Positions 2,209 to 64,000 are shown, numbered from the stretch's first letter. The stretch: DNA of 64,000 nt from an uncultured Candidatus Saccharibacteria bacterium (GCA_965230925.1 OZ246403.1:646541-710540); one strand, 5' to 3'. Notes: generated from the sequence alone by a model not told the origin. Program-made: numbers and translations.

Positions 2209-2282
2209 GCGGCCATAGCTCAACTGGTTAGAGCACTCGCCTGTCACGCGAGAGGTTGCCGGTTCGAGACCGGTTGGCCGCG
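2209..2282 (+). tRNA. tRNA-Asp (anticodon GTC)
   Basis: Acceptor GCGGCCA/TGGCCGC, anticodon stem CTCGC/GCGAG with loop CTGTCAC, T loop TTCGAGA. Confidence 0.85.
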
Positions 2283-2367
2283 CCGTAGAGTGCGTTCTTA
2301 ACAAGAATCGTTGCTTGTGTTAAGTTAGCCGACAGATTTTGATCCAAAAGAAGGGGGGTGAGTCAGG

Positions 2368-2595
2368 ATGAAGATCCCCACTAGTTTCTTCGACGAGAGG
2401 ATGATCGTTCGAATGATCAGTCAGCCGCGGCTTTTTTACACTGGTACGGTTTCCCGTCTGAGTCGTGAAAAAGAAAATCGTCTGGTTCTACAGGACGTCG
2501 TTAATGGCTTTAATCGTAGGCGACTTGATTTTGTTGTCTTGCCATTATCCGAGGTTGTGTTTGAGATTGATCACAACGGCCATCTTTCGCCGTAA
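2368..2595 (+). CDS. Small hypothetical protein (75 aa) inside the tRNA cluster
   Basis: ORF is preceded by a purine-rich SD-like AAGGGGGGTGA about 8 nt upstream of the ATG. No recognisable domain; it could be spurious. Confidence 0.2.
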   Translation: MKIPTSFFDERMIVRMISQPRLFYTGTVSRLSREKENRLVLQDVVNGFNRRRLDFVVLPLSEVVFEIDHNGHLSP

Positions 2596-2659
2596 AAACC
2601 ACCTGTTGTGTCTTTACTGAGACCGGGTGGAGTGTTCAATCTGTTAAATTTTTCCATAC

Positions 2660-2732
2660 GCCGATGTAGCTCAGATGGTAGAGCAACTCCATGGTAAGGA
2701 GTAGGTCGCCGGTTCAATTCCGGCCATCGGCT
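2660..2732 (+). tRNA. tRNA-Thr (anticodon GGT)
   Basis: Acceptor GCCGATG/CATCGGC, anticodon stem ACTCC/GGAGT with loop ATGGTAA, T arm GCCGG-TTCAATT-CCGGC. Confidence 0.85.
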
Positions 2733-2753
2733 CAGGTTTACTTAAATTAAGAA

Positions 2754-2778
2754 AAGCGGGTCGCGATGACCCGCTTTC
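2754..2778 (+). terminator. Weak hairpin terminator after tRNA-Thr(GGT)
   Basis: GCGGGTC-GCGAT-GACCCGC followed by only TTT. Confidence 0.3.
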
Positions 2779-3197
2779 CGGTGATAGGAACAGAACCTAC
2801 CAACCGCCTGGAAAATCTGGAAACATGTTGGCGAGGACTCTCCCAAGAGTATTTTCGGCTAATTGAACAAAGGTTTTTCTGGGACGAGTGTTTCTTTTTG
2901 AAACTGGCGAGGTGGCCATTTCTGCTGGATACATTCCGACGAGTAAGTCACTTTTGCCACCGCTTGGGGCCCCTTTTCGACCTGTTTTTCCTTTGGAACC
3001 ATTTTCCGGTCCCAATCCGTCTAGATTCATAGGCTCAATCCTCCTTGTTTATTGCCTGGTTCCGTTTGTGCTACGCCAGCACTTATTGTAGTATAACTTT
3101 GTCTTTTGTAAAGATTGCCACCTTACCCGCCCGCAACGCCTGAGCGCGTAGCGATGGCGGGCGGGGCTCAGCCTTGGGTTGGGGTGGAGTGTGTTAA

Positions 3198-3270
3198 GCC
3201 GGAGTAGCTCAGTTGGTAGAGCAATGCTTTCGTAAAGCAGAGGTCGCGAGTTCAACTCTCGCCTCCGGCT
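3198..3270 (+). tRNA. tRNA-Thr (anticodon CGT)
   Basis: Acceptor GCCGGAG/CTCCGGC, D arm GCTC/GAGC, anticodon stem ATGCT/AGCAG (one A-G mismatch) with loop TTCGTAA, T arm GCGAG-TTCAACT-CTCGC. Confidence 0.8.
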
Positions 3271-6734: not shown

Positions 6735-6805
6735 TGCCGGATCGTCTAATGGTAGGACATCGCCCTTTGGAGGCGAGTATCTTGGTTCGAGTCCAAGTCC
6801 GGCAG
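6735..6805 (+). tRNA. tRNA-Gln (anticodon TTG)
   Basis: Acceptor TGCCGGA/TCCGGCA, anticodon stem TCGCC/GGCGA with loop CTTTGGA, T arm CTTGG-TTCGAGT-CCAAG. Confidence 0.8.
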
Positions 6806-48056: not shown

Positions 48057-48923
48057 TTATTTCATTCCCCAATAACCAAAAACGTAGCCGGTGGTGTAGT
48101 CAGAATTGGGAACAAAGTCTTCGGTGTTGAGAACCTGGAGATTAGCTGTGGCGAGTGCTTGTTTAGTCTTCATGGCGGTGAGAAAAGTGAGGAGCGCGGC
48201 ATTTGAATCAGCTTCAACCAAGTTAATTGATTCGCTGTCGAAGTTGTTGAGAATTGCTCCGGAGAGCTGGTCGAGCGGTGCCGCTTGATCTGGCGTGAGA
48301 TAGTGAGAGAAGTCCACGCTCGCAATGAGCACCGTCTCTTTATCGAGCCTTGACGCTAAGAATTCGCCGAGTTGTTTGGCTTCGGCTTGACTCGTGTTAG
48401 AACGGAGAATAATTGGTGTAAGACGAGCTTCTGGGAACAGACGACTAATGAGAAGAGTTTGGGTACCAATTGAGTGTTCGTTGTCGAACGGTTCTTCTTC
48501 GATGGACGCGATTTTTTCCTCACTTAACTTCTCGGCTAGGCCTGGGATTGGCTTCAGCTCGCCATAAGTACTCAAGAAGCTGGCGGCAGAAACGGTGATC
48601 GGTGTTTGCCCTGCATTAGTATGATCAGGTCCGAGAATAATAAAATTCTTAACCGTTTGCTTGGCTTTGAGCCCACGATAGAAGTTCAGGAGCTCGGGAA
48701 TAGTAGTGGGAATATGGTGAGGAACAATGCCGCCAGAGATATGTGAGAGAGAAATTGGTTCAGGTGATTCCGGATTTTCGAGAGCAGTCTCAATTAGCGG
48801 TGTATATTCATTCCAGAGTGATTGGTGGTAAGTGAAAATCTTTTCCTCGCTGGCACTACCAGTGAAGTAGGCCAGGGCAAGAGCCAGTAGTACGAGAACA
48901 CTAGCGAATAGTAACCGTCGCAT
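48057..48923 (-). CDS. Memo1/AmmeMemoRadiSam-system-protein-B family protein with N-terminal signal anchor
   Basis: ISGGIVPHH, ILGPDH and SVDFSHYL blocks (Memo GPSH/DFSHY). N-terminal MRRLLFASVLVLLALALAYF. Overlaps the 3' end of the upstream giant gene by 23 nt. Confidence 0.6.
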   Translation of the reverse strand: MRRLLFASVLVLLALALAYFTGSASEEKIFTYHQSLWNEYTPLIETALENPESPEPISLSHISGGIVPHHIPTTIPELLNFYRGLKAKQTVKNFIILGPDHTNAGQTPITVSAASFLSTYGELKPIPGLAEKLSEEKIASIEEEPFDNEHSIGTQTLLISRLFPEARLTPIILRSNTSQAEAKQLGEFLASRLDKETVLIASVDFSHYLTPDQAAPLDQLSGAILNNFDSESINLVEADSNAALLTFLTAMKTKQALATANLQVLNTEDFVPNSDYTTGYVFGYWGMK

Positions 48924-51900
48924 TCTGAGAAATTGTCATGCTGGCTAGACTCTTGAGTGACTGGAGAATGGCTGGCTCAGCCTGATAGCGACCCTTCGAC
49001 ACCACGCGCGCCGTATAAGAAATTGAGCGGGGAGGATTCTTGCTAACGACGAAGGCTACTTCTTGATTTTCAATTTTTATGGGGTAATGCATCAGAATAT
49101 CTTTACCGCCGAAGGAGCGGCTGGCTTCCGGACTCACGGCGCGTAAACCGCTCGGTAAGTAATCCGTGAGTTTATAGGCGCCATCAAGAGATTGGGGGCC
49201 AAAACTTGGTGTGAGGTATACGGTCACAAGATCACCATCTTTGAACTCGGTGGTGGGAACACCGTTTACCGAGTATGAGCGCGTAAGTGTGAGATTAGAA
49301 TCTTTAACAACATCTTTTGGTGACGACGGCATTTCATATTGAGTTGTGAGACCGAGATTACCTTTTACCTCATTTAGTTTGAATGATTTTAATTCTTCTG
49401 CCGAGAGATTGAGAACCAGAGTTTCATTATTGCTTAGGGTTTTGTTCTCAGTTTTATTTCCTAGCTGATAACTGAACTTTGTTTCGGCGGCCTCGGTGTG
49501 AGCGAGAGCGCGGCTGAGGTAAATGAGTTCAGGGAAACTGTTGAGAATTTCTCGAGGATTATTGGTTTTCCCATAGAGGGCAAGGGCTGCCGCTTCCTTC
49601 TCTTCCAAACCAGCCGCTAGTGCCGCGGCGAGGGCGGTGGCCGTAATTGTTTCATCTGGTGGCAGATTTCTTACATATGCATATGAAGCTTGTTGGGTAA
49701 TCTCGGGCAGAATGGCGGTGCGATAATATTGCCGAGCATCTTCTTTAGCGCCAAGTGTTTCAAGGGCGAGGCCGACAAAGATTTTTTCGGTGATGGCGAG
49801 GGAAGTATCTTTGGCAAGAGTTTGGAGTTTGGGAAGAATTGGTTCACGGAAAGCACTGAGGCCAAAGAGGGCGCGGACACTGCGCGATCGATCTGCTTGT
49901 TTGTTTACGAGATTGTCGTGAAGATACTTTCGCAAGGCAACTCGGTTTATTGTCTGATCGTTGAAGAGATGAGCGCCGAGGCTCGAGATTTCAAGTTCAT
50001 CACCGGAGTACGGTAAGAGTTGTAAACCGCCGGAGTAAGATTGATATCGTTCACTTGGGAAAAGTTCATAAGGTTGCTCCTCAGCAAAATATTTTTTAAG
50101 CAATTCTTTCGCCGCGAATGTGGCACCCACTTGATCCAATCTTGGTCCGCGGTCGAGGGTGAGATGCTTGAGGTCTCGATACAGAGTGCCACGACCCGCT
50201 TCGCTGAAGGTGAGCGTGGTGTAGCCACTTGTCTTTGGTTCAATGGTCAAGCCAGCTGTTCCTTGGTAGAAATCAGCCGTGTTTTTATTGAAGTAACTTT
50301 CCACCACGTGAAGTGGGCTCACTAATCCATCAGTTGAGTTCCCGTTCTGAGCTCTCGCCGTAATTTTATGATCGCCGACGGTCAATTTTCCAAGGGCGAG
50401 ATCGATAATTGCACCGCCAATTTGTTCAATTTTCTTGAAGGGCAGAGTGGGGCTTTCCGCGCTGTACTTAGTGCTGTCCGAGATAACACCAGAGCCGAAG
50501 GTGCGCAGGCGCAGAGTGAGTTCGTCGCCAGCGAGATAAGTGTTATTAAGTGTGGTGTCGACGAAGAAGGGCAATGAGACGGGGATGAAAGAGACTGTTT
50601 TTCCGGCAAACAAGTCTTGAGTTACCGCCTGACTGGTGAGCCGCCACGAGGTAATGTTTTCCGGTAATTTGAAGTTTACTTTTGCGTGACCAGATCCATT
50701 GGTTACTATTGAGCGGAAAATAGCCGTTTCTTGAATATCGGAGCGCGGTGAAAGGCCTTCGCCGCCACCCATTTCTGCCCCGCCGCCACCACGGCCATCA
50801 TCGCGCGGTGGTCGGTGAGAAGAACGGAGCGTAAGCGATTGGAAGACGTCTCGGTAGAGAGATTGGGTAATGTCTTCTTCATTTGGTCGGAGAGAAAAGA
50901 CGGCCTCATCAATGGCCGAGAGATTTACTTCCGCTTTAGTGGGAGCTCCGGCGGCGTCGGTAACGCGGATATCAAGTTCTATGTTTTGACCGGGCATGAA
51001 GGAAGCTTGATTTGGGGTTACCGCAACGTTGAGTCGCCGTGTTTCGGCATTGAAGGAGAGGTTCTCGCGATAACTATTGTGGAAGCGGCCGCCGCTAAAC
51101 CACCCAGCCCACAGGTTAGCGTTCGGAATAAACTTGTTTTGGAAGGTTACCTGATAGGCGGGAGAATCCTGGATTTTGTAGGTGAGTTCATTGTTGTTTG
51201 CCACCGTGATGAAGATAAACTTATTTGATCCTGGTAGAAGGGTTTCGTCATTAGAATTGCGGATATTCAGGTTTACTAATTCGCCCAGTTGGTAGCCATT
51301 CTTTTTTTCTTCCAGTGGCCTAATTTGATAAGAGTAATCCTCATTTCCTTCCAGTCTAGGACTCTCGCCGTAGATATAACGGTCAGTTTTGAGCTGGCGA
51401 CCAAATTCGTCGTTGGTAGTAAAGGTGAGACTGTAGGTTTTTTTCTCTTCTGGTGAAAGAGAAAACTGAGCAATGCCACTAGCGTTGGAGGTGACCGTGC
51501 GGGTCTCGAGGAATTTTTCTTCTTTCGAATATTTATAAATTGGTTCGGTGGTTTTACTAATCGGATTATAGCGCGTGCCTGTTTGGTTTTTATGCTGAAT
51601 TACTTCGGTTACAGTAACCACTGTTTCTAGGTTAGGGACAGGGGCACCGAGATACTTTGTAGTGTCCCAAGAAGGCGTGCCTGAAGTAATATTACCTAGA
51701 GTAATAATATTATTTTTCAGCTCGAAATTTGTTTGGCCGCCTACTTTCTTCTGAGTAATCGTTTGATGAATATGCGGTCCAAAAATGAATATCGTGGCGC
51801 TGGTATTAATTTCTCCAGCTTCCGCCTGGGTGGGCCGGACACTTAAGTTGAAATGATTTGGCCAGTAGCGTTCCTCACCAGTGTAGGCGGTTGGAATAGT

Positions 51901-53727
51901 AATTGTGCCTTCGCCGCGCCCATCCAGAGTAATAATCCCGTTCCGTTGCTTGTTAATGAGGTAGCCTGAGTAAGTAAGGCCGAGATTTGTGACCGGTGTG
52001 CCGTCGAAGAATTCCCCCTTCACTTTGAAGGTGGCAGTTTCTCCAGCGAAGATGGCTGGTTTTTCCGGGCTTAGGGTTAATTGATAGGCCGGCTTAATAT
52101 ACTCGCTTATCGAGAGACCTTCTTGGGCAATAATTTCTTCACCTCGGCGGAGAGTGAGATAGTAAAATCCGGGCGAGAGATTCTCATAGGCTATTTCCCC
52201 AGTCAGGGTGTGATAGTCAGAGAGTTTGAAATTTTTGGTGGCGTAGATGGTTTTATTTTTTTCATTATCTGACCAGTAAACATTGCTTAAAGTGGCGGTA
52301 ATTTCTTCACCCGTGGCACTGTCTGCTCGCGGCTTGGCAATAGCCCAGAAGCGAATGATGTCGCTTGGGAGATAAATTGTTTTGTTGAGAGAAATATAAT
52401 CCCACCAAGTGTCTTGCTCATTGAAATCGGGTCGGTAACCATAGTCATTTTCTACCGGAATAACCACACTACCGCCAGGAGCTTCAGCTAAGAAGAAGTT
52501 CTCATCTTTAAGAATCTCGGGAGGGGTGGTGAAGATGGCGACTCCATCGGCGCCGGTCCGGGCGACTTCTTTTCCTCTCACTCGAATTGGCACATTGGCC
52601 AAACTGTTTTCTGTAGCGGCATTTTTGAGCCAGATCAATGATTGACCATTTCCCACCGCGGCTAAACTGGCTACCGGGCTCACTTGGAACCAGGCCATGT
52701 CGGTGTTGTCATTGGCGGTCAGAGCTATGGCGTAATAACCGACAGCGAGGGAGTTTGGGAGACGGACGAAACTGTTGTAACCTTCATTTGTTTTAATAAT
52801 TGGTAAAGTGGCGGAAAATGTTTTTTGTGAGGCAATTGCGTCGAGATCAGTATAGCGATGGTAGAAAGCCCAGGGATCTTGTTTCTTCGCTTGCGAAAGA
52901 AGTTCTAGAAATTGATTGGCAGAGTCAAAACGGTAAACCGCGGCCACCGCTTCGCTTACATTGCTACTAACATTGAATTCAATTGGTGAATCTGGTTTAA
53001 ATTCAGCAAAGGAGGGGTAAAAGTGGATGTATGGACCGCGCGCGTTCCCGCCCGCCTGCGTGGTCTCAAACCGGATAATTTTTTCTTCCCCTAGTTTTTC
53101 GCTCGAGCCTTCGGTGCCGAGCTCCGGCTTAACGGTAATGGTGTAAATGGTTTGTGGCTTCAAAGTGAGTCTTGGGATAAAACGAACTTTATTTCCCGAA
53201 AAGTCGAAGTCACCATCTGTCTTTGGAGTAATTTCAATATGTTTTGCCGGATCGTTGATGTTTTCACGATTAAATTCAATTTCAATTCCGGTATTGAGGG
53301 GGACATTGTTGGCTTGATGGCGAGGGAGAGAGCTCGTGATCGCGAACGGTGCCTTCACTTGGTAAGCCCAAGAGTAATCACGGTTCGAGAGTTCGCCACC
53401 GGCGATAGCGAGAGTGTAAATTTCATTAGTGTTGAGAGGAACTGTAGGGATAATTTCAAAGGTATTTCCAGAATCAACCTTCTTAACCTCGAAATCAGTT
53501 TCTGGAACAATCTTCAAATTATCTTCAATTGTTCCTACACCGAGGGGGGCTGAGGAGGTGAGAATAAAGCGGCTTTCGGCGTTAATCCCATTCGCATCAG
53601 CCGTGCTCGCGGTGAGGGTGAAGTCCGAGACGACCACCGGCCCTCTGCCTTTCATCCGAGGCCAAAAAACTACCGCCGCGATAATTAAAATCACGACCGC
53701 ACCTACCAAATAAGCTTTTTGTTTCAT
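48901..53727 (-). CDS. Giant secreted multidomain protein, alpha-2-macroglobulin (A2M/YfaS)-like, thioester-less
   Basis: 1608 aa. Signal anchor, many beta-sandwich (MG/Ig-like) segments, and an alpha-helical toroid-like region (AITEKIFVGLALETLGAKEDARQYYRTA...ATALAAALAAGL) where TED would sit. No CxEQ motif found. Confidence 0.5.
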   Translation of the reverse strand: MKQKAYLVGAVVILIIAAVVFWPRMKGRGPVVVSDFTLTASTADANGINAESRFILTSSAPLGVGTIEDNLKIVPETDFEVKKVDSGNTFEIIPTVPLNTNEIYTLAIAGGELSNRDYSWAYQVKAPFAITSSLPRHQANNVPLNTGIEIEFNRENINDPAKHIEITPKTDGDFDFSGNKVRFIPRLTLKPQTIYTITVKPELGTEGSSEKLGEEKIIRFETTQAGGNARGPYIHFYPSFAEFKPDSPIEFNVSSNVSEAVAAVYRFDSANQFLELLSQAKKQDPWAFYHRYTDLDAIASQKTFSATLPIIKTNEGYNSFVRLPNSLAVGYYAIALTANDNTDMAWFQVSPVASLAAVGNGQSLIWLKNAATENSLANVPIRVRGKEVARTGADGVAIFTTPPEILKDENFFLAEAPGGSVVIPVENDYGYRPDFNEQDTWWDYISLNKTIYLPSDIIRFWAIAKPRADSATGEEITATLSNVYWSDNEKNKTIYATKNFKLSDYHTLTGEIAYENLSPGFYYLTLRRGEEIIAQEGLSISEYIKPAYQLTLSPEKPAIFAGETATFKVKGEFFDGTPVTNLGLTYSGYLINKQRNGIITLDGRGEGTITIPTAYTGEERYWPNHFNLSVRPTQAEAGEINTSATIFIFGPHIHQTITQKKVGGQTNFELKNNIITLGNITSGTPSWDTTKYLGAPVPNLETVVTVTEVIQHKNQTGTRYNPISKTTEPIYKYSKEEKFLETRTVTSNASGIAQFSLSPEEKKTYSLTFTTNDEFGRQLKTDRYIYGESPRLEGNEDYSYQIRPLEEKKNGYQLGELVNLNIRNSNDETLLPGSNKFIFITVANNNELTYKIQDSPAYQVTFQNKFIPNANLWAGWFSGGRFHNSYRENLSFNAETRRLNVAVTPNQASFMPGQNIELDIRVTDAAGAPTKAEVNLSAIDEAVFSLRPNEEDITQSLYRDVFQSLTLRSSHRPPRDDGRGGGGAEMGGGEGLSPRSDIQETAIFRSIVTNGSGHAKVNFKLPENITSWRLTSQAVTQDLFAGKTVSFIPVSLPFFVDTTLNNTYLAGDELTLRLRTFGSGVISDSTKYSAESPTLPFKKIEQIGGAIIDLALGKLTVGDHKITARAQNGNSTDGLVSPLHVVESYFNKNTADFYQGTAGLTIEPKTSGYTTLTFSEAGRGTLYRDLKHLTLDRGPRLDQVGATFAAKELLKKYFAEEQPYELFPSERYQSYSGGLQLLPYSGDELEISSLGAHLFNDQTINRVALRKYLHDNLVNKQADRSRSVRALFGLSAFREPILPKLQTLAKDTSLAITEKIFVGLALETLGAKEDARQYYRTAILPEITQQASYAYVRNLPPDETITATALAAALAAGLEEKEAAALALYGKTNNPREILNSFPELIYLSRALAHTEAAETKFSYQLGNKTENKTLSNNETLVLNLSAEELKSFKLNEVKGNLGLTTQYEMPSSPKDVVKDSNLTLTRSYSVNGVPTTEFKDGDLVTVYLTPSFGPQSLDGAYKLTDYLPSGLRAVSPEASRSFGGKDILMHYPIKIENQEVAFVVSKNPPRSISYTARVVSKGRYQAEPAILQSLKSLASMTISQNATVTIR

Positions 53728-53745
53728 GGTTTAAATAGTAGCACC

Positions 53746-54903
53746 TTATCTCGTATCTTTTAATTTGAAGCTGAAAAAGACGCCGAGGAGGGTGACAAGG
53801 CCGAGCATGGTGAAGAGCGCGGCGAGAGGGAAGAAAAAGAGCATTACACTTGCGACTATTGGTGCGATTAAGTAAGCGAGCGGCAAGAGGTTGCGTGAAA
53901 GAGAGAGAACATCCACGTCTTTGGCGTCAATTTTTTTAAATAAATAAGTTTCTTTCATAATCTCGATTGTCGCCGCGCCGACGCGAGTGAGGAAGAGAAG
54001 ACTTGCCCAGAACCAGAGATTTTTAATTTCCAATTGCGCGAGCCACAGGGTGGCGAGTCCCATTATGAAGAAACCCGCGATCAGTAATTCTTTCTCGCCC
54101 AGTTTTCGGTCCGCGAGCCAGCCAAGTGGGTAGGTTACGATCACGAACGGCAAAAGCATGACAGTCAGAATGATGCCAATTTCTGGCCAGGTGAAACCGA
54201 GGGTGTTGTGAAGATGAAGCGGCAAGTAAATTACCATCACAGCGTAAAAAAAGTTGAGCAAGAAGTCGATCGAGAGAATGTGATAAAGATCGCGATAGTG
54301 ATTATTGCGATGGTTGAAAATTTTTCCTACTGTTTGGAAGAATTTTCCACCCACTGGTCTGGCGGTAACCGCGCGCATGGTGCTAATTAAGTAAATGGCT
54401 GGGAGCAAGGCGAGGCCTGCTAAAATGTAAATTTGGCGATAATTCTCAAATTGCCCAAGGAGTGTTCCCACCAAGAAAGGCGAGAGAAACCAGGCTATGT
54501 TGGTGAGAGTTAGGAAAAGACCTCGAACTCGACCAGTTTCGGTGTCCCTTGTAATGTGTTCGAGATACAAGTCGAGATTAAATCGAGCCAAGTATCCGAG
54601 AGCGTCGTAAACAATGAAGGCGATAACGAGGACTAGAGGAAACTGGAGTTTGGCGAGAAGAATAATCGCGACAATTTTTCCCACGAGGAAGGCAATACTC
54701 AAACCCTTCAAACTTCGCGGATAAGCCCGCAAAACGGCAGGCAAGAGCGCGAGTGCTCCGAGGAGCACAAGTGAAGATAGGGCATAAACCGGACCTATTA
54801 AACCCTCGCCACCCACAGCACTTAAGAAAAGCGAGTTAGTGTAGGCCGAGAAGGCGAGCGCGACGTTGAGGAAGAAAACGGCCCAGTATAAATTTTTTCT
54901 CAC
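53746..54903 (-). CDS. MFS transporter
   Basis: 12 predicted TM; MFS loop 2-3 motif-like GRVRGLF. Confidence 0.7.
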   Translation of the reverse strand: MRKNLYWAVFFLNVALAFSAYTNSLFLSAVGGEGLIGPVYALSSLVLLGALALLPAVLRAYPRSLKGLSIAFLVGKIVAIILLAKLQFPLVLVIAFIVYDALGYLARFNLDLYLEHITRDTETGRVRGLFLTLTNIAWFLSPFLVGTLLGQFENYRQIYILAGLALLPAIYLISTMRAVTARPVGGKFFQTVGKIFNHRNNHYRDLYHILSIDFLLNFFYAVMVIYLPLHLHNTLGFTWPEIGIILTVMLLPFVIVTYPLGWLADRKLGEKELLIAGFFIMGLATLWLAQLEIKNLWFWASLLFLTRVGAATIEIMKETYLFKKIDAKDVDVLSLSRNLLPLAYLIAPIVASVMLFFFPLAALFTMLGLVTLLGVFFSFKLKDTR

Positions 54904-54915
54904 CCAACTATTATA

Positions 54916-56730
54916 TTAGACCTCAATCAGAACCGGAAGGACAATTGGTCGGCTATGTGTTTTCTGAAACAAGAATTTCCCGATTTCTTCTCGAAGGACA
55001 TTGCGCACATAGTCCAGGTTAATGGGGTGCATGCGCGCCGTTGAGTCCTCGATCTTTTTCTTGGTCACAATGCGTACTTGGCGGAGCAGATCCTGCGCTT
55101 CTTTAAGATACACGAAGCCGCGCGAGATAATATCTGGCGATTTGATCACTTTGCCGGTCTGAATATTGATGATCGCAATGATCACGAAGATGCCTTCTTG
55201 AGCGAGCATCATCCGGTCGCGCACCACCACTTCTTTCACGTCGCTATTGCCGATGGAGTCCACCATAATCACTCGGCTGGCCGCTTTCTCCTTTAGCATC
55301 ACAATCTTTTCTCCGTTGTCTTGAATTTCAATCACTGAGCCATTGTCGGGAACAATAATGTTTTTCTCTGGCATACCGAGTTCCATGGCCACATCGGCGT
55401 GAACGCGCAGTTTCTGATGCCAACCGTGAATAGGAATAAAGAATTTTGGCTTCACCTTCTTGTGTAGCCACTCAATTTCGCCGCGATTACCGTGACCAGA
55501 GGAGTGAATAAACACTTCCGAGCTGCGGTAGTGAATAATCTTGGCGCCTTGGCGGGCAATATTGTCTTTAAGCTTTTGCACCGTGAGCTCATTGCCCGGC
55601 ACAATTGAGGAAGAGAGGAGAACGGTGTCGCCTTTCTTAAATTTGAGATATTTATGAGTCTTATTGGCCATGCGCATGAGGGCGGCAAATTCTTCGCCCT
55701 GAGCTCCAGTGGCGAGGATCACCAGGTTGTCTTCCGGGTATTTATCGGCTTCGGTAATGGGGATAATGGTATCTTTTTTCACCTTCAACAGACCAGCTTC
55801 GGCTGCCACTTCCACGTTTGTCTTCATGCTCCGGCCTTCGACAATAATTTTGCGGCCATATTTCTCTACCACCCCAATGATTTTAATCATTCGTTCAAGT
55901 TGAGAGGCGAAGGTGCCGATAAAGAGACGACCTTTGATGTTTTTGATAATCTCTTCAAGATTTTTATGAGTCTCTCGTTCGGGGATTGAGAAGCCGGGAT
56001 TCTCGATATTTGTCGAGTCGGTCATTAGGAGCAAGGTTTTTTCACGGTCGAAGACGCTGTATCGTTCCTCTTCTTCCGCCGTTGGATCACCGTCCACCTT
56101 TTCAAGATCAAGCTTGAAGTCGCCTGGATTTACGATGAGACCGTAAGGGGTTTCAATAAGAACGCCGAAAGAGTCGGGAATGGTGTGAGTGACGCCGAAG
56201 AAACGGACGGTTTGCTCGCCGAGTTTGAGCTTGGCATTATTTTCCACCACGATCATATTAAGAGCCGGCAAGTGGGGGAATTCCGCCATGCGCTTCTTAA
56301 TGAAAAGCGAGGTGAGGTTCCGAGTATAAAGCGGCGGATTGCCAATACGACTCATCACATAAGAAATACCGCCAGTGTGGTCAAGGTGACCGTGGGTAAT
56401 AATGACACCGCGGATTTTCTCTTTATTTTGCTCAAGATAAGTGACGTCGGGGATAATGTAATCTACTCCTGGCATTTCATCAGTTGGGAAGGCAAAACCA
56501 ATGTCGATGACAATAATGTCATTGCCAATTTCGATAGCGGTGCAGTTTTTGCCAATTTCTTCCACGCCGCCAAGCGGGATAATGCGGATATTGCCTGCCG
56601 CTAGTGGTGGAATGGGCTTACTTACCTCTTCCTCAGGTCGTCGAGGTAAGCGCGGGCGGTGACGAGGTGGTGGTCGACGATTACTTGAGGCAAATGGTCT
56701 CGGAGCTGAATTCGGTGTTGGGTTAATCAT
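54916..56730 (-). CDS. rnj: Ribonuclease J (beta-CASP MBL family)
   Basis: HGHLDHTG, beta-CASP motifs, about 600 aa with a Pro/Arg-rich N-terminal extension. Confidence 0.85.
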   Translation of the reverse strand: MINPTPNSAPRPFASSNRRPPPRHRPRLPRRPEEEVSKPIPPLAAGNIRIIPLGGVEEIGKNCTAIEIGNDIIVIDIGFAFPTDEMPGVDYIIPDVTYLEQNKEKIRGVIITHGHLDHTGGISYVMSRIGNPPLYTRNLTSLFIKKRMAEFPHLPALNMIVVENNAKLKLGEQTVRFFGVTHTIPDSFGVLIETPYGLIVNPGDFKLDLEKVDGDPTAEEEERYSVFDREKTLLLMTDSTNIENPGFSIPERETHKNLEEIIKNIKGRLFIGTFASQLERMIKIIGVVEKYGRKIIVEGRSMKTNVEVAAEAGLLKVKKDTIIPITEADKYPEDNLVILATGAQGEEFAALMRMANKTHKYLKFKKGDTVLLSSSIVPGNELTVQKLKDNIARQGAKIIHYRSSEVFIHSSGHGNRGEIEWLHKKVKPKFFIPIHGWHQKLRVHADVAMELGMPEKNIIVPDNGSVIEIQDNGEKIVMLKEKAASRVIMVDSIGNSDVKEVVVRDRMMLAQEGIFVIIAIINIQTGKVIKSPDIISRGFVYLKEAQDLLRQVRIVTKKKIEDSTARMHPINLDYVRNVLREEIGKFLFQKTHSRPIVLPVLIEV

Positions 56731-56742
56731 GTTTTTATTTTT

Positions 56743-58371
56743 TTAATTATTATTTTCTGTTGCAAACATCGGCCATACTTTCTCTGTCTCAATATACCAA
56801 TTGTGGATATTGGCAAAGCGTTCGCTTGGCACATTGAGTGTTGGCAATGACGCTCCTACCACCTTCTTTGGCAAGAGATAAAGAAAGTCGGGAGTGTAGA
56901 GAAAGATGGCTGGTTGTTCAGCCGTCACCAGATCCACAAACTTGGTATATAAAGCCAGGCGCTCGGTGCGGTCGATAGTGCCACGGGCTTCCTCGAGAAT
57001 TTTATCTGCTGTTGCATTGGTGTAGAGCGCAATATTTAAACCAGGGTCAAGTCTCTGAGAAGAATGCCAAAAAGCAAAAGGATCCGGTTCGCGGCCCACG
57101 ATTTCGCCAAAGAGTAAGGCTTCATATTCACGTGGGCGGATAACCTTTTCATTGAGATCTCCGGTCTCGAAGACCTTAATTTCTACCTGAGCACCAAGTT
57201 TTTCCCAATCAGCTTTCACGATTTCAGCCACTGCCTTGAGTTCTGGAATATCCGCGGTGGCGAGGGTAAAGGTTAGATCGGTTTGAGCCGGTAGTGTGGG
57301 GGTTGAAGTGCTGATTGACTTGGGAGCGAAGGCTTCTCCGGGAATGGGGGAAAAAAGTGGTTTGCCGAAGCCGGCGAGCACGTTGTCTACGAGGTATTTT
57401 CGATCAATAGCTCGACTCAAGGCTTGGCGAACCTCTTTCTTGGTAAATAAACTATTTTGATTGTGGTTGAAAAAGATTCCAAAAACGCGTGGCAAAGAGG
57501 AGCGTAGCAGGGTTGAATTATTTGATTCAAGCCCGGCAATAAAATTTGGATTTGCTGTTGAGAGGGACTCGGTTTCACCGCTCTCATATGATTCAATCAA
57601 CTTGTCTTCACTAGGATAGAAACGAATGGTGAGCCTCTTAATCTTTGGAGTACCGAGGGCAAAGCGAGTGAAAGCGGCGAGTTCGTAATACTCCTTAATT
57701 TTGTCGCCATCCTCTTTAATTTTTTTTACGACATATGGCCCGGATCCGATCGGTTCGATGTTAAGCGGACTGAAGGGGAAATTCTCGGCCGCCACTTCTG
57801 ACCAAAGATGCTTGGGAAGAATTCCAAGAGTTAAATTTTCTAAAAAGGCGGCATAGGGTTGCTTGAGGGTGAAAATAATGGTTTTTTCGTCCGGTGCAGA
57901 AACTTCTACTCCGTCCCAGTTGGGGAGGCGTGGACTTTTGATCACCGGATTTTTGATTTGAGTAATGGTGAAAGCGACGTCGTGCGCGGTGAGTGGCTTG
58001 CCGTCATGCCAGTGTAGGTTCTCTTTGAGAGTAATGGTGTAATTGAGATGATCCTCGCTGATAGTTAGGTTTTTTGCCAAATCTGGTTCCAATTCGCCCT
58101 TTGTTCCCAGGCGGAAAAGGCCAGAGTAAATAAGACTAGTAAGGTCACGGTCGGTATCAGAAATAGCGAGCACGGGGTTAATAAAGCGAGGGGAACCAAC
58201 AACTCCCTCAGTGAGACTGCCGCCAGTTTTTGGAATTTCTACTAAATACTGGGCGCTCCATTGCCAGCCAATACCGAGCAGGCTGAGACAGAAAACAACC
58301 ACCAAAAGAGAAAGTAGCGCTAATTGGCGGCCCGAAAAAGAGCCTAAAACCGAAGGAAGAGTTTTGTTCAC
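56743..58371 (-). CDS. ABC transporter substrate-binding protein, family 5 (peptide/nickel)
   Basis: Signal anchor plus an SBP_bac_5-like sequence of about 540 aa. Confidence 0.7.
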   Translation of the reverse strand: MNKTLPSVLGSFSGRQLALLSLLVVVFCLSLLGIGWQWSAQYLVEIPKTGGSLTEGVVGSPRFINPVLAISDTDRDLTSLIYSGLFRLGTKGELEPDLAKNLTISEDHLNYTITLKENLHWHDGKPLTAHDVAFTITQIKNPVIKSPRLPNWDGVEVSAPDEKTIIFTLKQPYAAFLENLTLGILPKHLWSEVAAENFPFSPLNIEPIGSGPYVVKKIKEDGDKIKEYYELAAFTRFALGTPKIKRLTIRFYPSEDKLIESYESGETESLSTANPNFIAGLESNNSTLLRSSLPRVFGIFFNHNQNSLFTKKEVRQALSRAIDRKYLVDNVLAGFGKPLFSPIPGEAFAPKSISTSTPTLPAQTDLTFTLATADIPELKAVAEIVKADWEKLGAQVEIKVFETGDLNEKVIRPREYEALLFGEIVGREPDPFAFWHSSQRLDPGLNIALYTNATADKILEEARGTIDRTERLALYTKFVDLVTAEQPAIFLYTPDFLYLLPKKVVGASLPTLNVPSERFANIHNWYIETEKVWPMFATENNN

Positions 58372-58413
58372 TGAACCTAAAAAAAGTTAATTACCTCGTT
58401 TACTAATGTAAGC

Positions 58414-58650
58414 CTAGACGTTGAGAAAAAGTTGCAGAATAGCCACAAGAAGGAATAAGACAGCCAAGACAACGCTGCCGAGAAAGAGTGTTTTCTCTAG
58501 TCCACGCTTGGTATGGAAGTTACTCGAAGGATTCGAGCCTCCGAAAGCGCTGCCAAGACCCGCCTCACTCTGTTGTAAGAGGATCGCGGTAATAAGCAGC
58601 AACGACAAAACTATTTGGATCCAGGGAAGAATTCCCTGCAGAAATAGCAT
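58414..58650 (-). CDS. secG: Preprotein translocase subunit SecG
   Basis: MLFLQGILPWIQIVLSLLLITAILLQQSEAGLGSAFGG; the track ORF's N-terminal extension was trimmed. Confidence 0.75.
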   Translation of the reverse strand: MLFLQGILPWIQIVLSLLLITAILLQQSEAGLGSAFGGSNPSSNFHTKRGLEKTLFLGSVVLAVLFLLVAILQLFLNV

Positions 58651-58722
58651 TGCCGAGCATTCTAGCAGAAAACTTTTCCCCAGGCAAGAAGACCACCCAG
58701 GGGCTATACTTATCTTAGTTAA

Positions 58723-60960
58723 ATGATTACAAAGTCCCACCCTCTCTTTTGGGGCAGTATTTTTTCCCTTTTTTCACTGTTATTTTTTGTTTCTAGTGTT
58801 TTTGCCGTGGTTAATCCGCCCGCTGGTTGCCCGGCAGTTTCCTTCGATAGTGATAAGAATTTTGTGGTTAACGGTGAAAAGTATTTCCCTTTTGGTTTCT
58901 GGGCTTTTTCCGGTGGCGCGGCTAGTGGCAATTGGAGCGGTTATTCTGGTTCTTTCAACGCCGTGGTTGATGGCCCCACCATTAGTAGTGAGGGCACTCT
59001 CACTAGTAATAATCTCAAACTTTTTGCTCAGGTCGATGGTGATGCCGGCCTTGCAGAAAGTCACGACGATAATGAGGGAATTATTGCCTGGGAAGTAATG
59101 CATGAGCCAAACAGCTTAGGACTTAGTGGCTCAGCGGTGGCGGCCCAAGCGAGCGCAATGCGCGCCGCCGATGATTGTGGCCGACTAATTTTCGTTACTC
59201 CGAGCTTGGGCGGTATTGCTGAAGGTTATGTTAATCAGGTGCGTAATGCGGTTGATTTTGCCGCCATTGAGACTGGTTATTTGGTGCCGCAATTACCGAT
59301 TGAGGAGGTGGGGGAACTTTTTAGCGAGGGTGCTGACGCGATGGCGGCCGTGGGCAAGCCGTCAATTTTCTTGGCGCGGGTAGGTGGTTATCAACCCGCT
59401 CGTTTCCGTGACACTTTCCGTGAGTCAACCGTGGCCGAGCTAAGAGCGCAAATTTTTGATGCCATTATTCGTGGAGCGAAAGGGGTTTTTCTCTGGCCAT
59501 TTGAGAAAGGGGTAATTTTGAGTGATCTCCAGCCTTTTGAGCCCGCTAATGCGATTTATGATATGGAAGATAGTTCTTCAGCTGGCCTCTATGGTGGGAT
59601 TAAAAATCTGGCTTCGGAGATTGCCGAACGGGAAGAAATTTTCACGGCGCCGGTATCAAGCGGTGTGGGGGTGTCTAGTAACAATTCTGACGTGAAGTGT
59701 GGTTGGCGGACACTTTCTGGAGAGCGACGGCGTTTAATTTGCGTTAATTTGTCTCAAGATCATTCACCGTATTTCGACTATGGTAGTGGCGAGACGGTTT
59801 GGCGGCTTAAAGCACGAGCGATTACGCCTGGAGCGGAATCTTTTCCCACGGACTATGCTAGTGGCAGTTTCATTGCACGAGACTTACTTCCCGGGACGGT
59901 GGCGGTTCAAGATTTGTCTACTGGTTTAACCAATCAAAACAAACTGATGACGACAGTGGAAATTGATTTTGACACTGTTCCAACTGGCGCCACCTTTACC
60001 TACGCTGTTTATGCAGACAACTCTCGTGATCAGGCGCCAGATACGAGAATCTTTCTTTCCAATGAACTGGCGATTAACGGCTCTGGACCACAAACCTTTC
60101 CGGTGGTTGGAGTAACTCTTGAGCACACCAAGAATTATTACTTGTTGATTCAAACCAATACAGCCGGAGTGCGGGTCAGGGCGCGAGACGTGCGAGGCGG
60201 CGTGCGACCTAAAGATGACTCTACTGCAGTGCCACTTGCCGAGAGCTTCGAAGATCTGCACGTGGGCGACAGTGCGAGCAATGTTCGCCTCACACTAAGT
60301 GGCGATGAGTTTAGTGCTTATTGTGTTGAGAAAAATTTTGGTAATTGCGCGAATGGAAGTGTGGCTGGCGGCGTACTCACAGATTCTTTCAGTGAATATG
60401 CCGTACATATTTATCACTTTGAGCCGGCAGAAGAAGAGTTGCTCGATACCACCGACACCACAGACCCTACGGTTCCTGATGAGCAATCGGATATTTTGCC
60501 ACCCAATTTACCCCCCGATGAACCACCACCCCTTTTGCCGCCGCCGACTGTTCCCACGACCCCTCTTAGCTCAACACCATGCGCGCCAAGCACCGGAACT
60601 GTGTTACCGGCCGTGGTTGGACCGCTCTCTTTGGGGATGAAAAACAATGCGCAGGTTAGTGCCCTTCAGCGTTTGCTTGCTACCGACCGCACCCTTTACC
60701 CTGAAGGAATTGTTTCTGGTTATTATGGTCCGCTCACTCGTGAGGCGGTGAAGCGTTTCCAGCTTCGTTACAGTTTGGTGAATCTTGCGACCACTGACCC
60801 GTCACTTATTGGCTTCGCTGGCCCCGCCACCCGCGCCAAGATGAATGAAGTTTTGCGCCAGACTAGTTCGGTTTGTTCTTTAGTCAACTTGCCCGAGCAA
60901 ACTCGCTTACAATTAATTCAACTTTTGCACCTTCTTGCTATAATGTTGAATTCTCGATGA
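58723..60960 (+). CDS. Secreted TIM-barrel glycoside-hydrolase-like protein with C-terminal peptidoglycan-binding (PG_binding_1) domain
   Basis: Signal peptide; IIAWEVMHEPN resembles the GH5-type xEP acid/base block; Pro-rich linker; C-terminal LQRLLATDRTLYPEGIVSGYYGPLTREAVKRFQ PGBD motif. Confidence 0.5.
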   Translation: MITKSHPLFWGSIFSLFSLLFFVSSVFAVVNPPAGCPAVSFDSDKNFVVNGEKYFPFGFWAFSGGAASGNWSGYSGSFNAVVDGPTISSEGTLTSNNLKLFAQVDGDAGLAESHDDNEGIIAWEVMHEPNSLGLSGSAVAAQASAMRAADDCGRLIFVTPSLGGIAEGYVNQVRNAVDFAAIETGYLVPQLPIEEVGELFSEGADAMAAVGKPSIFLARVGGYQPARFRDTFRESTVAELRAQIFDAIIRGAKGVFLWPFEKGVILSDLQPFEPANAIYDMEDSSSAGLYGGIKNLASEIAEREEIFTAPVSSGVGVSSNNSDVKCGWRTLSGERRRLICVNLSQDHSPYFDYGSGETVWRLKARAITPGAESFPTDYASGSFIARDLLPGTVAVQDLSTGLTNQNKLMTTVEIDFDTVPTGATFTYAVYADNSRDQAPDTRIFLSNELAINGSGPQTFPVVGVTLEHTKNYYLLIQTNTAGVRVRARDVRGGVRPKDDSTAVPLAESFEDLHVGDSASNVRLTLSGDEFSAYCVEKNFGNCANGSVAGGVLTDSFSEYAVHIYHFEPAEEELLDTTDTTDPTVPDEQSDILPPNLPPDEPPPLLPPPTVPTTPLSSTPCAPSTGTVLPAVVGPLSLGMKNNAQVSALQRLLATDRTLYPEGIVSGYYGPLTREAVKRFQLRYSLVNLATTDPSLIGFAGPATRAKMNEVLRQTSSVCSLVNLPEQTRLQLIQLLHLLAIMLNSR

Positions 60961-60970
60961 TGTTTTTTCT

Positions 60971-62512
60971 ATGGAAAGTAAAATAAAAATCAAGCTCACT
61001 ACTTTAGTTTTTGCTTGGATTTGTTTAACCTTTAGCATTTTTTACATTATCGGAGAGCAACTTTATGTTTTAGATAGTGGTTCGCAATTGTCACGAACAA
61101 GTCCCCAGATCCGTGAAATTTCTGAATTTCAAAGTCCAGAGCTTGAGCTGAAACTTGATTTTGACCAAGGAATTTCGGGAGACATAGAAAGATTTCCTCT
61201 TTTCAATTTACCGCCCGAGGCAAAAGATTCAAGCTACTTAGCTCAAAAAGAAAATACTCTTGTTTTTATCATGGAGGCCACTGATTCCGATGATGCGCAG
61301 CTAATTTTTTCGATTACCAACCCGCCTGATCATGGCAACCTTGGTGGCATTGAACCGTTTGGTAATAAGAAGGCGCGGATTACTTATACGCCGGCTCATG
61401 GATATAAAGGGGTTGACCGGTTTAATTTTCGGGTAACAGATGCGAGTGGAAACAGTGATACTGGAGTCATTTCTCTTCGTGTTTTGCCGGAACTTATTCC
61501 GTGGACAGAAATAAATGTCCCGGATTGGCCGGCGCTTGAGTTTTATACTGAAGAAGATGGTGTTGAGCCCGGGATGACGGTTCTCGATTTTGCTCTTGAA
61601 GCTTTGCCTGACTGGTCGACAGTGGCTAATCGGGTCATCCTTACTACCCGACACGAGTACGCGTACACTGATCTATATGAGGAAATAAATGAGCGCAAGC
61701 CGGCGGGCCTCAAGATTATTGGTGGGATCAAGACTCTTTCTGCTATGCCGCCACCATTACCTCCACTCGCTGGTGATACTCATCCGAGATATGATTTTGT
61801 TAATACTGTCGCATGGCAAGAAATTGCTTCTGCTGCCATTACGATTTCTGAACAAACAGGGAGCAAAGAAGTAGTTCTCGAAAACGAAGCAAACTTGCTT
61901 TTTTATAATTTTGATAACCAACCTATTGATTATGTTGCGTTTGCCCAGGCGCTTGCTCCGCTTGCGGCCGCAGCCAATAACTACGGGATTGAGTTTTGGT
62001 GGTGGTTGCCTCAGACTCTGCCCGATTTTTCCCCGAGTGACGGTTTCGACCAAACAGCGTGGACGGCCAGTCTTATGGAGGTGGTTAAAAATACGGTGCC
62101 AAATTCGAAGATTATTACGCTTAATGCTGCGCGTTATTGGTGGTATGAGCCTGATGAAGCGGCGCGAAGCCTTGTCATTTCTTCAATGGGACTTGATAAT
62201 GTAGTCGAAGATTTGTGGGTCGTTGATTGGGGGCCAGCTCCTAGTCCGGAAGAATGTGGTTGGAGTACACCACAGCCCGACGGCGCCTTTTGGTTCTGTT
62301 CCCGAATGTATTCTACAGGGGAAGCCTTGCAACAGCTCGAGAGTTATTTTCCTCGGTGGCCGGGCGATAACAACACCCGTCAAATTTTAGCGAAACGAGT
62401 TGCTATTTATCCTCAAGGTGGCCACGATTGGATAAAGATTGCTGAAGAATTTGCCAACACTTTGCCAACTGTGGGACTTGCTCTTGATGAGCTTATAAAC
62501 TATGACCCTTAA
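60971..62512 (+). CDS. Secreted protein with N-terminal cadherin-like/Ig-like domain and conserved WWWLP/ARYWW domain
   Basis: Signal anchor; IFSITNPPDHGNLGG...YTPAHGYKGVDRFNFRVTDASGNSD cadherin-like block; paralogous to the following gene. Confidence 0.55.
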   Translation: MESKIKIKLTTLVFAWICLTFSIFYIIGEQLYVLDSGSQLSRTSPQIREISEFQSPELELKLDFDQGISGDIERFPLFNLPPEAKDSSYLAQKENTLVFIMEATDSDDAQLIFSITNPPDHGNLGGIEPFGNKKARITYTPAHGYKGVDRFNFRVTDASGNSDTGVISLRVLPELIPWTEINVPDWPALEFYTEEDGVEPGMTVLDFALEALPDWSTVANRVILTTRHEYAYTDLYEEINERKPAGLKIIGGIKTLSAMPPPLPPLAGDTHPRYDFVNTVAWQEIASAAITISEQTGSKEVVLENEANLLFYNFDNQPIDYVAFAQALAPLAAAANNYGIEFWWWLPQTLPDFSPSDGFDQTAWTASLMEVVKNTVPNSKIITLNAARYWWYEPDEAARSLVISSMGLDNVVEDLWVVDWGPAPSPEECGWSTPQPDGAFWFCSRMYSTGEALQQLESYFPRWPGDNNTRQILAKRVAIYPQGGHDWIKIAEEFANTLPTVGLALDELINYDP

Positions 62513-64000
62513 AAGAGTTTTTATTTTATTTTTTTTGGCTCTTGCTGGAGCAATTTTCCTTTTCGGTTACTTTTTTTGGTCCGGAACTTTTTCCTTTAAT
62601 ACCTCATCCCAGCTTGCCGTACCTGGTGATGGTGGTAATGACTGGAGCGAAGGCACAAGTTTCTTGGTTCAAGAAAATCAGCAAATGCGACTTAGTATCA
62701 ACGCCCCGGGATCTAGTGGGGCGACCTTCACCGTGGTAACACCGCCGTCCCACGGCAGCTTGAGTCATTTTGTAGTGGGGCAAGGTGGTGGCACAGCTGA
62801 AGTTCTTTATACTCCGTCAAATGGTTTTCGCGGAGAAGATTCTTTTACTTTCAGAGCAGAGTCTGGTGGGCAACTTCTGGCTCCTATTACGGTGGAACTT
62901 ATGGTTTTACCCAAACTTGTTCCCTGGCTCGAAATTAATTTACCTGTAGAACAAGTATTATCCATTTGGCCCGATGCTCCCGGGGCGACTGCTAATATGG
63001 ACGAACTTGATTTCGGTATTCTTGGTCTTGATGATTGGTCAGAAGTTACCAATGAGGTGATCATTACCACGGCCCCTGGTATTTCCGAATACGTTTATCC
63101 CGAACTAATGAATCGAAAACCAAGCAATGTTCGCATTGTGGGTGGATTAAAAACCGTTAATATTCTTCCGGTCGTAGGACATGACAATAGCACCGGGAAC
63201 GATAGTTACGATTTTACCGATTTGGCCTCGTGGCAAGCGCTTGCCGCTGAAGCTAGAGAAATCGTAGAAGAAACAGGGACGAATATTGTCGTGTGGGAAA
63301 ATGAGACGGCGCTTTGGAATTACCACTTCGGCACCCACACCGTCGACTTTACTGAATTAGCCCAGGTGCTCACTGCCACCGTGAAGCCGCTTGACGATGA
63401 TGGAATCGTCACTTGGTGGTGGTTGCCAAACTTTTTTGCCGATATTCCTGCCCTTAATCCGGTGGCGCGTAACACAGAATTTGTAAACACAGTGAAGTCG
63501 GTATTACCCAAGGCCGTTTTCATGGTTCCTTACTCAGCTCGTTACTGGTGGAATGACGGTGATGAGGCCGAAAGAACGGAAATGACAAACTTAGTCGGTT
63601 TGTCGAAAATGATCGAAGCTCTTTGGATCTCGGAAAATGGTTTTATTGGTATTGGCCAAGTCTACACTCCAGCTCAAGCTATTGAGCAATTGCTTGGGAC
63701 AATGTTGCGCACTGGTGAAACAACACAGCCAAATTTTGTATTAACACCAGTCGTCGAACTTTATCCTCAAGGCAAAGAGTGGCTTGCTACAAGCGCAACA
63801 TTCAACAGTATTTTGCCTAATTTAGCTTCGGCTAATATTGCCGATTTTCCGCCGCCTAGTGAAGAAGATCCAGAGGAAGATGATCCACCGCCTAATACTG
63901 GAGGCGGCGGAGGTGGGGGTGGAGGCGGCGGTTCCAATAATTCTGGTGTTGGTGGTGATTCAGAACCCGATGTATTACCTCCGCCTCCGGCTCCAATTAT
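62502..64000 (+). CDS. Paralog of 60971..62512 (partial, runs off window end); not in ORF track
   Basis: ATG 62502 opens a frame with no stop up to 64000. Same architecture: MTLKRVFILFFLALAGAIFLF anchor, FTVVTPPSHGSLS...YTPSNGFRGEDSFTFRAESGG, WWWLP, ARYWW, YPQG; ends in a Pro/Gly-rich linker. Confidence 0.55.
   Translation, partial: MTLKRVFILFFLALAGAIFLFGYFFWSGTFSFNTSSQLAVPGDGGNDWSEGTSFLVQENQQMRLSINAPGSSGATFTVVTPPSHGSLSHFVVGQGGGTAEVLYTPSNGFRGEDSFTFRAESGGQLLAPITVELMVLPKLVPWLEINLPVEQVLSIWPDAPGATANMDELDFGILGLDDWSEVTNEVIITTAPGISEYVYPELMNRKPSNVRIVGGLKTVNILPVVGHDNSTGNDSYDFTDLASWQALAAEAREIVEETGTNIVVWENETALWNYHFGTHTVDFTELAQVLTATVKPLDDDGIVTWWWLPNFFADIPALNPVARNTEFVNTVKSVLPKAVFMVPYSARYWWNDGDEAERTEMTNLVGLSKMIEALWISENGFIGIGQVYTPAQAIEQLLGTMLRTGETTQPNFVLTPVVELYPQGKEWLATSATFNSILPNLASANIADFPPPSEEDPEEDDPPPNTGGGGGGGGGGGSNNSGVGGDSEPDVLPPPPAPI

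Follow-up and report, generated by a model that had tools for sequence, protein, structure and literature searches.

What do three tightly packed genes for predicted surface proteins contribute to a bacterium with a small genome, and what is the conserved domain shared by two of them? The genes, here called A, B and C, lie on the plus strand at positions 58723-64000 of a 64-kb stretch of DNA (the window, i.e., everything that was analyzed) from a Candidatus Saccharibacteria bacterium, a member of the Patescibacteria or candidate phyla radiation (CPR). The shared domain, of about 310-340 aa, occurs in B and C. The reading that we favor, at a probability of roughly 50%, is that this domain is a glycan-hydrolyzing enzyme, and that B and C are wall- or membrane-tethered glycan hydrolases of an unclassified family.

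B (60971-62512, 513 aa) and C (62502 to past 64000, where the window end cuts the open reading frame (ORF); 647 aa at full length) are 31% identical over 428 aa, with an E-value of 3e-64 that is far past chance, and by this comparison they are true paralogs. Both carry an N-terminal Ig-like domain, in agreement with the original prediction, which had described tandem paralogs with a cadherin/Ig-like N-terminus. In B, this domain spans 61208-61477 (aa 80-169) and matches the Pfam models Big_9 (PF17963; 44.3 bits against a cut-off of 23.6, E = 3.5e-11) and Cadherin_5 (PF17892; 27.2 bits against a cut-off of 26.5, E = 3.5e-6); in C, Big_9 is found at 62655-62897 (aa 52-132; 27.3 bits, E = 7e-6). 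The conserved domain follows at 61484-62509 of B (aa 172-513) and at 62907-63851 of C (aa 136-450). B ends with this domain and has no PG_binding_1 or other wall-binding module, and C continues from 63852 into a linker rich in Pro, Gly and acidic residues, as had been foreseen, and then, outside the window, into a PG_binding_1 domain (aa 539-582; Pfam 29.7 bits, cut-off 23). The motifs WWWLP, ARYWW, YPQG and KPxxxxIxGG occur in both paralogs; a further motif of the predicted set, LPxWS, is exact in B only.

Structure modeling indicates with confidence that the conserved domain is a (β/α)8 TIM barrel. The AlphaFold model of the B domain (m90736805a1ab), built from a 60-sequence alignment, displays eight alternating β/α units at a mean predicted local distance difference test score (pLDDT) of 88.5 and a predicted template modeling score (pTM) of 0.88; a first model from five sequences was weaker and had the same topology. 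Landmarks along the barrel of B include PWxEIN at β1, IIGGIKT at β3, WWWLP at β5 and IYPQG at β8. The structural neighbors of the B model comprise Old-Yellow-Enzyme flavoproteins, Cwp19 of Clostridioides difficile and glycoside hydrolase (GH) enzymes of families GH1, GH14, GH20 and GH18, and the C-terminal domain of PgaB appeared among the Foldseek matches of the first model. The Foldseek comparison proposed with the original prediction returned a GH18 endo-β-N-acetylglucosaminidase as its top match, with every template modeling (TM) score below 0.5. The earlier suggestion that the domain might have a glycan hydrolase fold fits the barrel model and its neighbors, as well as the carboxylates, polysaccharide loci and fusion partners described below.

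Conservation was evaluated across 86 full-length family members, with residues numbered as in the B domain. The conserved positions at the C-termini of the strands are E9 (β1), T54/T55 (β2), G81-x-K83 (β3), [E/D]133-N134-E135 (β4), W173 (β5) and Y309-P-G (β8), and many further Trp, Tyr and Phe residues are conserved in the barrel. E135 is kept in 85/86 members, and a [D/E]-x-E pair after β4 in 84/86. Both window paralogs retain the carboxylate pair, as LENE in B (61877-61888; E304-N305-E306, at the end of β4) and as WENE in C (63294-63305; E266 and E268). Among the closest known systems are GH18 and GH20 (clan GH-K), GH25, GH56 and GH85, which are substrate-assisted N-acetylhexosaminidases with D-x-E or D-E on β4; the D-x-E form is that of GH18, GH25, GH56 and GH85, whereas clan GH-A enzymes have an invariant Asn-Glu on β4 together with a β7 Glu. 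Since the barrel has two carboxylates at positions i and i+2 on β4 and lacks an invariant β7 nucleophile, its pattern fits the substrate-assisted N-acetylhexosaminidase type better than clan GH-A.

A classical retaining glycosidase of the clan GH-A type is one alternative: N134-E135 would provide the acid/base, the nucleophile would be a carboxylate at the end of β7 (within the consensus V-T-P-D-G; D419 in B, E379 in C), and the substrate need not be N-acetylated. We consider it improbable. The middle Asn is present in 71/86 members, the other 15 having C, S, G, Q, M or H at this site, whereas the carboxylate two positions upstream of E135 is kept in 84/86; the β7-end Asp or other carboxylate is found in only 48/86, and its position differs by one in the CPR paralogs, although a nucleophile is expected to be invariant. 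Neither the Asn-Glu of β4 nor the β7 Glu typical of clan GH-A is invariant in the barrel.

A substrate-assisted hexosaminidase mechanism for the barrel is a tentative proposal, which we place clearly below even odds. The putative active site would lie at the C-terminal face of the barrel. There, the invariant Glu just after β4 (E306 in B, E268 in C) would act as general acid/base, and the carboxylate two residues upstream (E304 in B, E266 in C) would take the role that the Asp of D-x-E has in GH18-, GH25-, GH56- and GH85-type enzymes. Cleavage would occur beside an N-acetyl-hexosamine with the help of the substrate itself, and an enzyme nucleophile would not be needed.

The genomic context of the relatives points to polysaccharides. 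The nearest relatives outside CPR are Phycisphaerae lipoproteins of 730-810 aa that combine PKD, cadherin-like and barrel domains. At long Phycisphaerae-type loci, on the Phycisphaerales chromosome CP070827 and in metagenomes, the gene is located inside a Wzx/Wzy polysaccharide cluster in six of seven cases, and in four of these six the divergently oriented neighbor is a Polysacc_deac_1+DUF3473 deacetylase of carbohydrate esterase family 4 (CE4). This neighbor scores 243-270 bits on TIGR03006 ('XrtA system polysaccharide deacetylase'), just below the cut-off of 276 bits. The clusters also encode a WecA-like N-acetylglucosamine (GlcNAc)-1-phosphate transferase, UDP-GlcNAc 2-epimerase, Wzy, flippases, glycosyltransferases of family GT4 and PMT_2-type transferases. 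In Wzx/Wzy clusters, a long member (PKD/cadherin plus barrel, ~750-800 aa) is often paired with a short one consisting of the barrel only (~335-365 aa), as at L014:7794-12070, L016:5335-8882 and L018:6582-9907. Across the family, the barrel is fused to Dockerin_1, BACON or BACON_2, PKD, TSP3, cadherin-like and PG_binding_1 domains, partners that are typical hallmarks of extracellular carbohydrate-active enzymes.

A comparable arrangement is known from hydrolases encoded beside a CE4 deacetylase in exopolysaccharide loci, namely the C-terminal domain of PgaB (GH153), PelA (GH166), Sph3 (GH135) and Ega3 (GH114). These enzymes share a TIM-like barrel with the family described here, whose Phycisphaerae members lie in Wzx/Wzy clusters directly beside a CE4 deacetylase. 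However, the known examples belong to synthase-dependent systems (Pga, Pel and galactosaminogalactan, GAG) rather than Wzx/Wzy-dependent ones, and the window genes themselves lie outside any polysaccharide locus.

Several results weigh against assigning glycan hydrolysis to the barrel. No Pfam or NCBIfam model covers it in B, in C or in 60 family members, and no significant sequence or profile match to any glycoside hydrolase family was obtained. Profile comparison with hhalign gave a probability of 0.10 against Escherichia coli ChiA (GH18) and of 0.14 against E. coli PgaB (GH153; PgaB residues about 310-672), which does not place the barrel in GH153. The equivalence of [D/E]-x-E with the D-x-E of GH18 is inferred from strand position alone, and the conserved K83 and E9 are not standard in GH18 or GH20. 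The structural comparison shows only the resemblance common to TIM barrels: flavoenzymes of the Old Yellow Enzyme type score almost as high as glycosidases, and the Foldseek matches, all with TM < 0.5, include orotidine monophosphate (OMP) decarboxylase, HydE and sugar isomerases. CPR-type members stand among housekeeping genes, and neither they nor the window genes are part of polysaccharide clusters. An N-terminal hydrophobic segment was detected by a crude hydrophobicity cut-off in 71 of 156 proteins, mostly family representatives, some of which are fragments, plus the homologs of A. Two distant barrel members without a signal peptide are encoded on phage-like contigs. One, at L011:8001-8825 (identical to L015, an IMG/VR UViG), is on a viral contig of 25.7 kb, where it has small early-type genes on one side and a PAPS-reductase-like gene on the other, with portal and Mu-F genes downstream; the other, at L013:8001-9959, is on a 262-kb contig that resembles a jumbo phage (ligase, ThyX, all genes on one strand). 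Because of these phage-contig members and of the members without an N-terminal hydrophobic segment, the barrel family is not uniformly extracellular.

The same observations lend some weight to the view that the barrel is an enzyme other than a glycosidase, such as a polysaccharide-modifying esterase, phosphodiesterase, lyase or transferase, or a sugar isomerase/epimerase-like or cofactor-dependent TIM barrel, with E9, K83 and E135 as its catalytic set. TIM barrels are functionally promiscuous, with flavin oxidoreductases, isomerases and aldolases scoring near glycosidases here; a near-invariant Lys at the end of β3 and Glu at the end of β1 are unusual in both GH-K and GH-A; and some signal-peptide-free, phage-encoded members lie beside genes of the DNA-metabolism type. 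We nevertheless judge this view unlikely: the conservation pattern includes neither a His/Asp set for metal binding nor a motif for flavin or phosphate, the conserved Trp, Tyr and Phe residues suit a sugar-binding cleft, and both the locus context and the fusion partners indicate polysaccharides.

To place the family, a five-sequence profile was run against 1.84 billion representative proteins, which yielded 288 cluster representatives at E ≤ 1e-3 and 78 at E ≤ 1e-30. The sole signals in the model libraries were sub-threshold matches of the barrel to DUF6259 (E = 0.005-0.018), a family of which no mention was found in the literature searched; PHROGs holds no model for the barrel. Searches of the PDB with the sequence and the profile gave nothing credible. 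One borderline match, to 8z91 (E = 0.0012 over 83 residues), was discarded because this α/β-hydrolase esterase has an incompatible fold. None of the 60 members matched Glyco_hydro_18, and the upstream Asp residues of the GH18 signature DxxDxDxE are absent, leaving the terminal [D/E]-x-E alone; GH20 membership, as judged by the Glyco_hydro_20 hidden Markov model and an adjacent D-E pair on β4, was likewise not found. On these sequence comparisons, the barrel is an unclassified family that belongs to none of the families compared here. The original prediction was to count as refuted if the domain matched a well-characterized family with a mundane role and the paralogs were not secreted; no such family matches, and N-terminal anchors are present.

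Further searches outlined the distribution of the family. No barrel was found by tblastn among cultured phage and plasmid records, by a planctomycete-type profile search in viral contigs or by a first metagenome profile scan, and a protein word-index search with a 60-sequence profile added no members. A profile scan of genome contigs recovered two Phycisphaerae loci only; the window genome was not among its matches. In a distance tree, the CPR-type proteins (B, P0002, C, P0023 and P0051) form one clade beside the Phycisphaerae-type members. As most of the family is from planctomycetes and phages carry some members that have no signal peptide, the barrel is not an episymbiont-specific device.

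One of these CPR-type proteins, P0002 (511 aa), is a third paralog, encoded elsewhere in the window genome. Its identity to B is 59-66% (66% within the domain), and it lacks a PG-binding module. Its gene, at L003:10001-11536 (also in L004 and L005), stands alone on the plus strand, flanked on the opposite strand by a GT5 glycogen synthase/GH57/GH15 block and by split transketolase genes, which relate to glycogen and pentose-phosphate metabolism. Between the transketolase halves, L004:12514-14111 holds a tandem array of five small ORFs (83-96 aa), none of which matches Pfam, and the corresponding span of a sister contig, L003:12512-14104, has no called genes, which may reflect a difference in gene calling or a variable insert. 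B and P0002 also share an insertion of 25 residues with two Cys after β7 (62225-62299 in B; DWGPAPSPEECGWSTPQPDGAFWFC), which has low model confidence and is absent from C and nearly all other members of the barrel family.

How the proteins are held at the surface can be read from their termini. The 15-residue-window Kyte-Doolittle maxima are 2.6 for A, 2.3 for B and 3.0 for C, with basic residues upstream in all three. A has a signal-peptide-like N-terminus (aa 1-28) with a cleavage-like site, …SVFA|VV; in B and C, basic residues precede a hydrophobic segment of 19-21 residues, at aa 9-27 and aa 6-26, respectively, which is taken as a membrane anchor from its hydrophobicity. On this hydrophobicity profile and the basic residues, A, B and C are all predicted to be extracytoplasmic envelope proteins, in line with the three consecutive secreted proteins originally proposed. 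B is held at the membrane by its N-terminal anchor. C is held at both ends, by its anchor and, through the flexible Pro/Gly linker, by the C-terminal PG_binding_1 domain, and A is secreted and bears the same linker and PG_binding_1 module. In B and C, the Ig-like Big_9 domain is a spacer ahead of the barrel.

The C-terminal module of C is 56% identical to that of A (E = 2e-42), and C, like A, is wall-tethered. In genomes with A homologs, the gene order is secG (on the minus strand), the A homolog, a PKD protein, secD and secF. The PKD protein (L006:12346-14196; L008:2799-3353) consists of a membrane anchor, four PKD domains, a Gly/Pro linker and PG_binding_1, and its C-terminal module is 58% identical to that of C. 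In the window genome, the passengers that follow A are instead Big_9 plus the conserved barrel domain. As the PKD protein replaces Big_9 plus barrel in the related genomes, the slot after A appears to hold interchangeable passengers on one chassis of anchor, linker and PG-binding domain. PG_binding_1 is thus common to three passenger architectures (A-type, PKDx4 and Big_9+TIM). The linker/PG-binding module is bracketed by two conserved Cys, is followed by an amphipathic tail and, judging from these alignments, looks like a reusable wall-tether cassette for different passenger domains.

Wall enzymes with PG_binding_1, such as phage endolysins and the muramoyl-pentapeptide carboxypeptidase of Streptomyces albus (1lbu), share a bona fide domain of this type with A and C, which match endolysin PHROGs through that domain only. 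In contrast, the catalytic parts are unrelated, and in A and C the module is C-terminal, behind a long Pro/Gly linker. Another of the closest known systems is the TIM barrel of Cwp19 of C. difficile (5oq2), a peptidoglycan hydrolase that is exposed at the wall; it differs in that the proteins described here have no match to Pfam DUF4015/GHL10, and in that Cwp19 carries CWB2 repeats where PG_binding_1 is found here.

The surface architecture also raises the question of whether B and C are enzymes at all. As non-catalytic adhesins or spacers, they would use the barrel as a carbohydrate-binding pseudo-enzyme to link the membrane, the wall and an outer layer or host surface; the Ig-like domains, linkers and PG-binding module resemble those of adhesins, C has an anchor at either end, and catalytically dead GH18-like lectins exist. 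Against this, the two carboxylates and other pocket residues are conserved down to about 20-30% identity within the family, including both window paralogs. Conservation of this kind marks an active site that has been retained, and we regard the adhesin explanation as very unlikely.

Taking the barrel as a glycan hydrolase, its role would differ between lineages. In Phycisphaerae, its substrate would be an exopolysaccharide of the Wzx/Wzy type, GlcNAc-based and partly deacetylated, which it would trim or release; in the present CPR cell, the tethered copies would target glycans of the wall or surface, either those of the cell itself or those of a neighbor. In its fullest form, the proposal is of a new GH family, a substrate-assisted barrel with [D/E]-x-E on β4, dedicated to trimming or releasing the GlcNAc-type product of deacetylase-associated Wzx/Wzy exopolysaccharide loci in Phycisphaerae and spread to phages and CPR, where it would have been rebuilt into membrane- and peptidoglycan-tethered enzymes that process glycans on the wall or surface of the bacterium or of its host. 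This combined scenario is possible, and we hold it with considerable doubt. The original prediction went further toward the host and saw a candidate interaction system for an episymbiotic lifestyle; a host-interaction role is speculation, and the presence of PG_binding_1 is just as good an argument for attachment to the bacterium's own wall.

The first gene, A (58723-60960, 745 aa), poses a separate question. The original prediction described a TIM-barrel-like hydrolase with a WEVMHEPN block, a Pro-rich linker and a PG_binding_1 domain. The last three are borne out: the block lies at 59089-59112 (aa 123-130), the Pro-rich acidic linker at 60421-60603 (~aa 567-627, read from the translation and the homolog alignment), and PG_binding_1 at 60646-60780 (aa 642-686; 31.6 bits in Pfam, where the cut-off is 23), inside a longer conserved C-terminal module (~aa 614-720) flanked by two Cys. 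The hydrolase assignment found no significant support. The N-terminal domain of about 300 aa (~aa 29-335) has no assigned family: Pfam and NCBIfam gave no match even at E ≤ 10, and PDB sequence and profile searches gave none that was significant. A β-rich middle region (~aa 340-566) matched 'choice-of-anchor R' at sub-threshold level only. A comparison of the N-terminal domain with the barrel of B and C gave an hhalign probability of 0.1, and the idea that the one diverged from the other was rejected.

Only three homologs of A were found in an index of 5.8 billion proteins, one of them labeled Patescibacteria; their layout is identical, and the WEVMHEPN block is invariant in them save for its fourth residue (AWEVxHEPNS). 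The best PDB sequence match of A is 4lx4, a GH5 endoglucanase, in a local and non-significant alignment (E = 0.83) that pairs GIIAWEVMHEPNS of A with the strand bearing the NEP acid/base of GH5. Compared with GH5 and other clan GH-A endoglucanases, AWEVxHEPNS thus aligns locally with 'IMNEPHS' of 4lx4, but A has His where the canonical Asn stands. Beyond the block, at a distance of 133 residues, there is a hydrophobic strand with E/D-K-G after it. WEVMHEPN may be considered a candidate NEP-like acid/base motif, as a lead only.

The cluster itself is compact. A and B are separated by 10 nt, and B and C overlap by 11 nt; secG adjoins A on its upstream side, on the opposite strand. C begins with an ATG at 62502, overlapping the TAA stop of B (62510-62512), and its frame stays open up to 64000. 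It is absent from the ORF list because the ORF lister skips ORFs that run off the window end. On the start of C, its overlap with B, its continuation past 64000 and its absence from the ORF list, the original prediction read the locus correctly. It also proposed extending the contig to complete C. A Logan contig that is 100% identical to window positions 50971-64000 runs 217 nt beyond the window end, and full-length C was recovered as protein P0008 (647 aa), which passes through the Pro/Gly linker into the second PG_binding_1 domain of the cluster. A scan of the locus for promoters and terminators gave results indistinguishable from shuffled sequence. Horizontal transfer of the cluster was rejected, as GC and base composition at 58-64 kb match the rest of the window.

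Two independent Logan assemblies (L001, ending at 13247, and L002, ending at 6828) break at the same base, ~217 nt past position 64000, inside the PG-binding module of C (…GYYGPLTREA). The shared break point suggests, as a candidate reading, a repeat with the module of A just downstream; the 53 nt preceding the break show only 81% DNA identity to the module of A, and a repeat-induced break is thus unproven. Elsewhere in the window, a few genes upstream of the cluster, positions 48901-53727 on the minus strand encode a 1608-aa alpha-2-macroglobulin-type protein (Pfam A2M, A2M_BRD and Big_5), one more envelope protein of large size encoded by this small genome, whose neighbors are an MFS transporter, RNase J and an SBP_bac_5 solute-binding protein. 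Five tRNA genes lie within 1.3 kb at 1966-3270, and a sixth at 6735-6805 (Rfam matches at the gathering threshold).

The barrel of B and C is plausibly a new enzyme family, but the biology is of a known kind: glycan hydrolases with a wall-anchored TIM barrel are already familiar, and no concept is overturned. If it is a glycosidase, it would represent a family of the CAZy type that current pipelines miss entirely, having no Pfam, NCBIfam or PHROGs model, and the exopolysaccharide loci of planctomycetes would gain a candidate hydrolase. The barrel would also be among the few predicted surface enzymes of CPR bacteria, whose envelope biology and host interactions remain mostly obscure. For these genomes, the cassette of linker and PG_binding_1 offers a simple rule by which wall-tethered surface proteins may be recognized.

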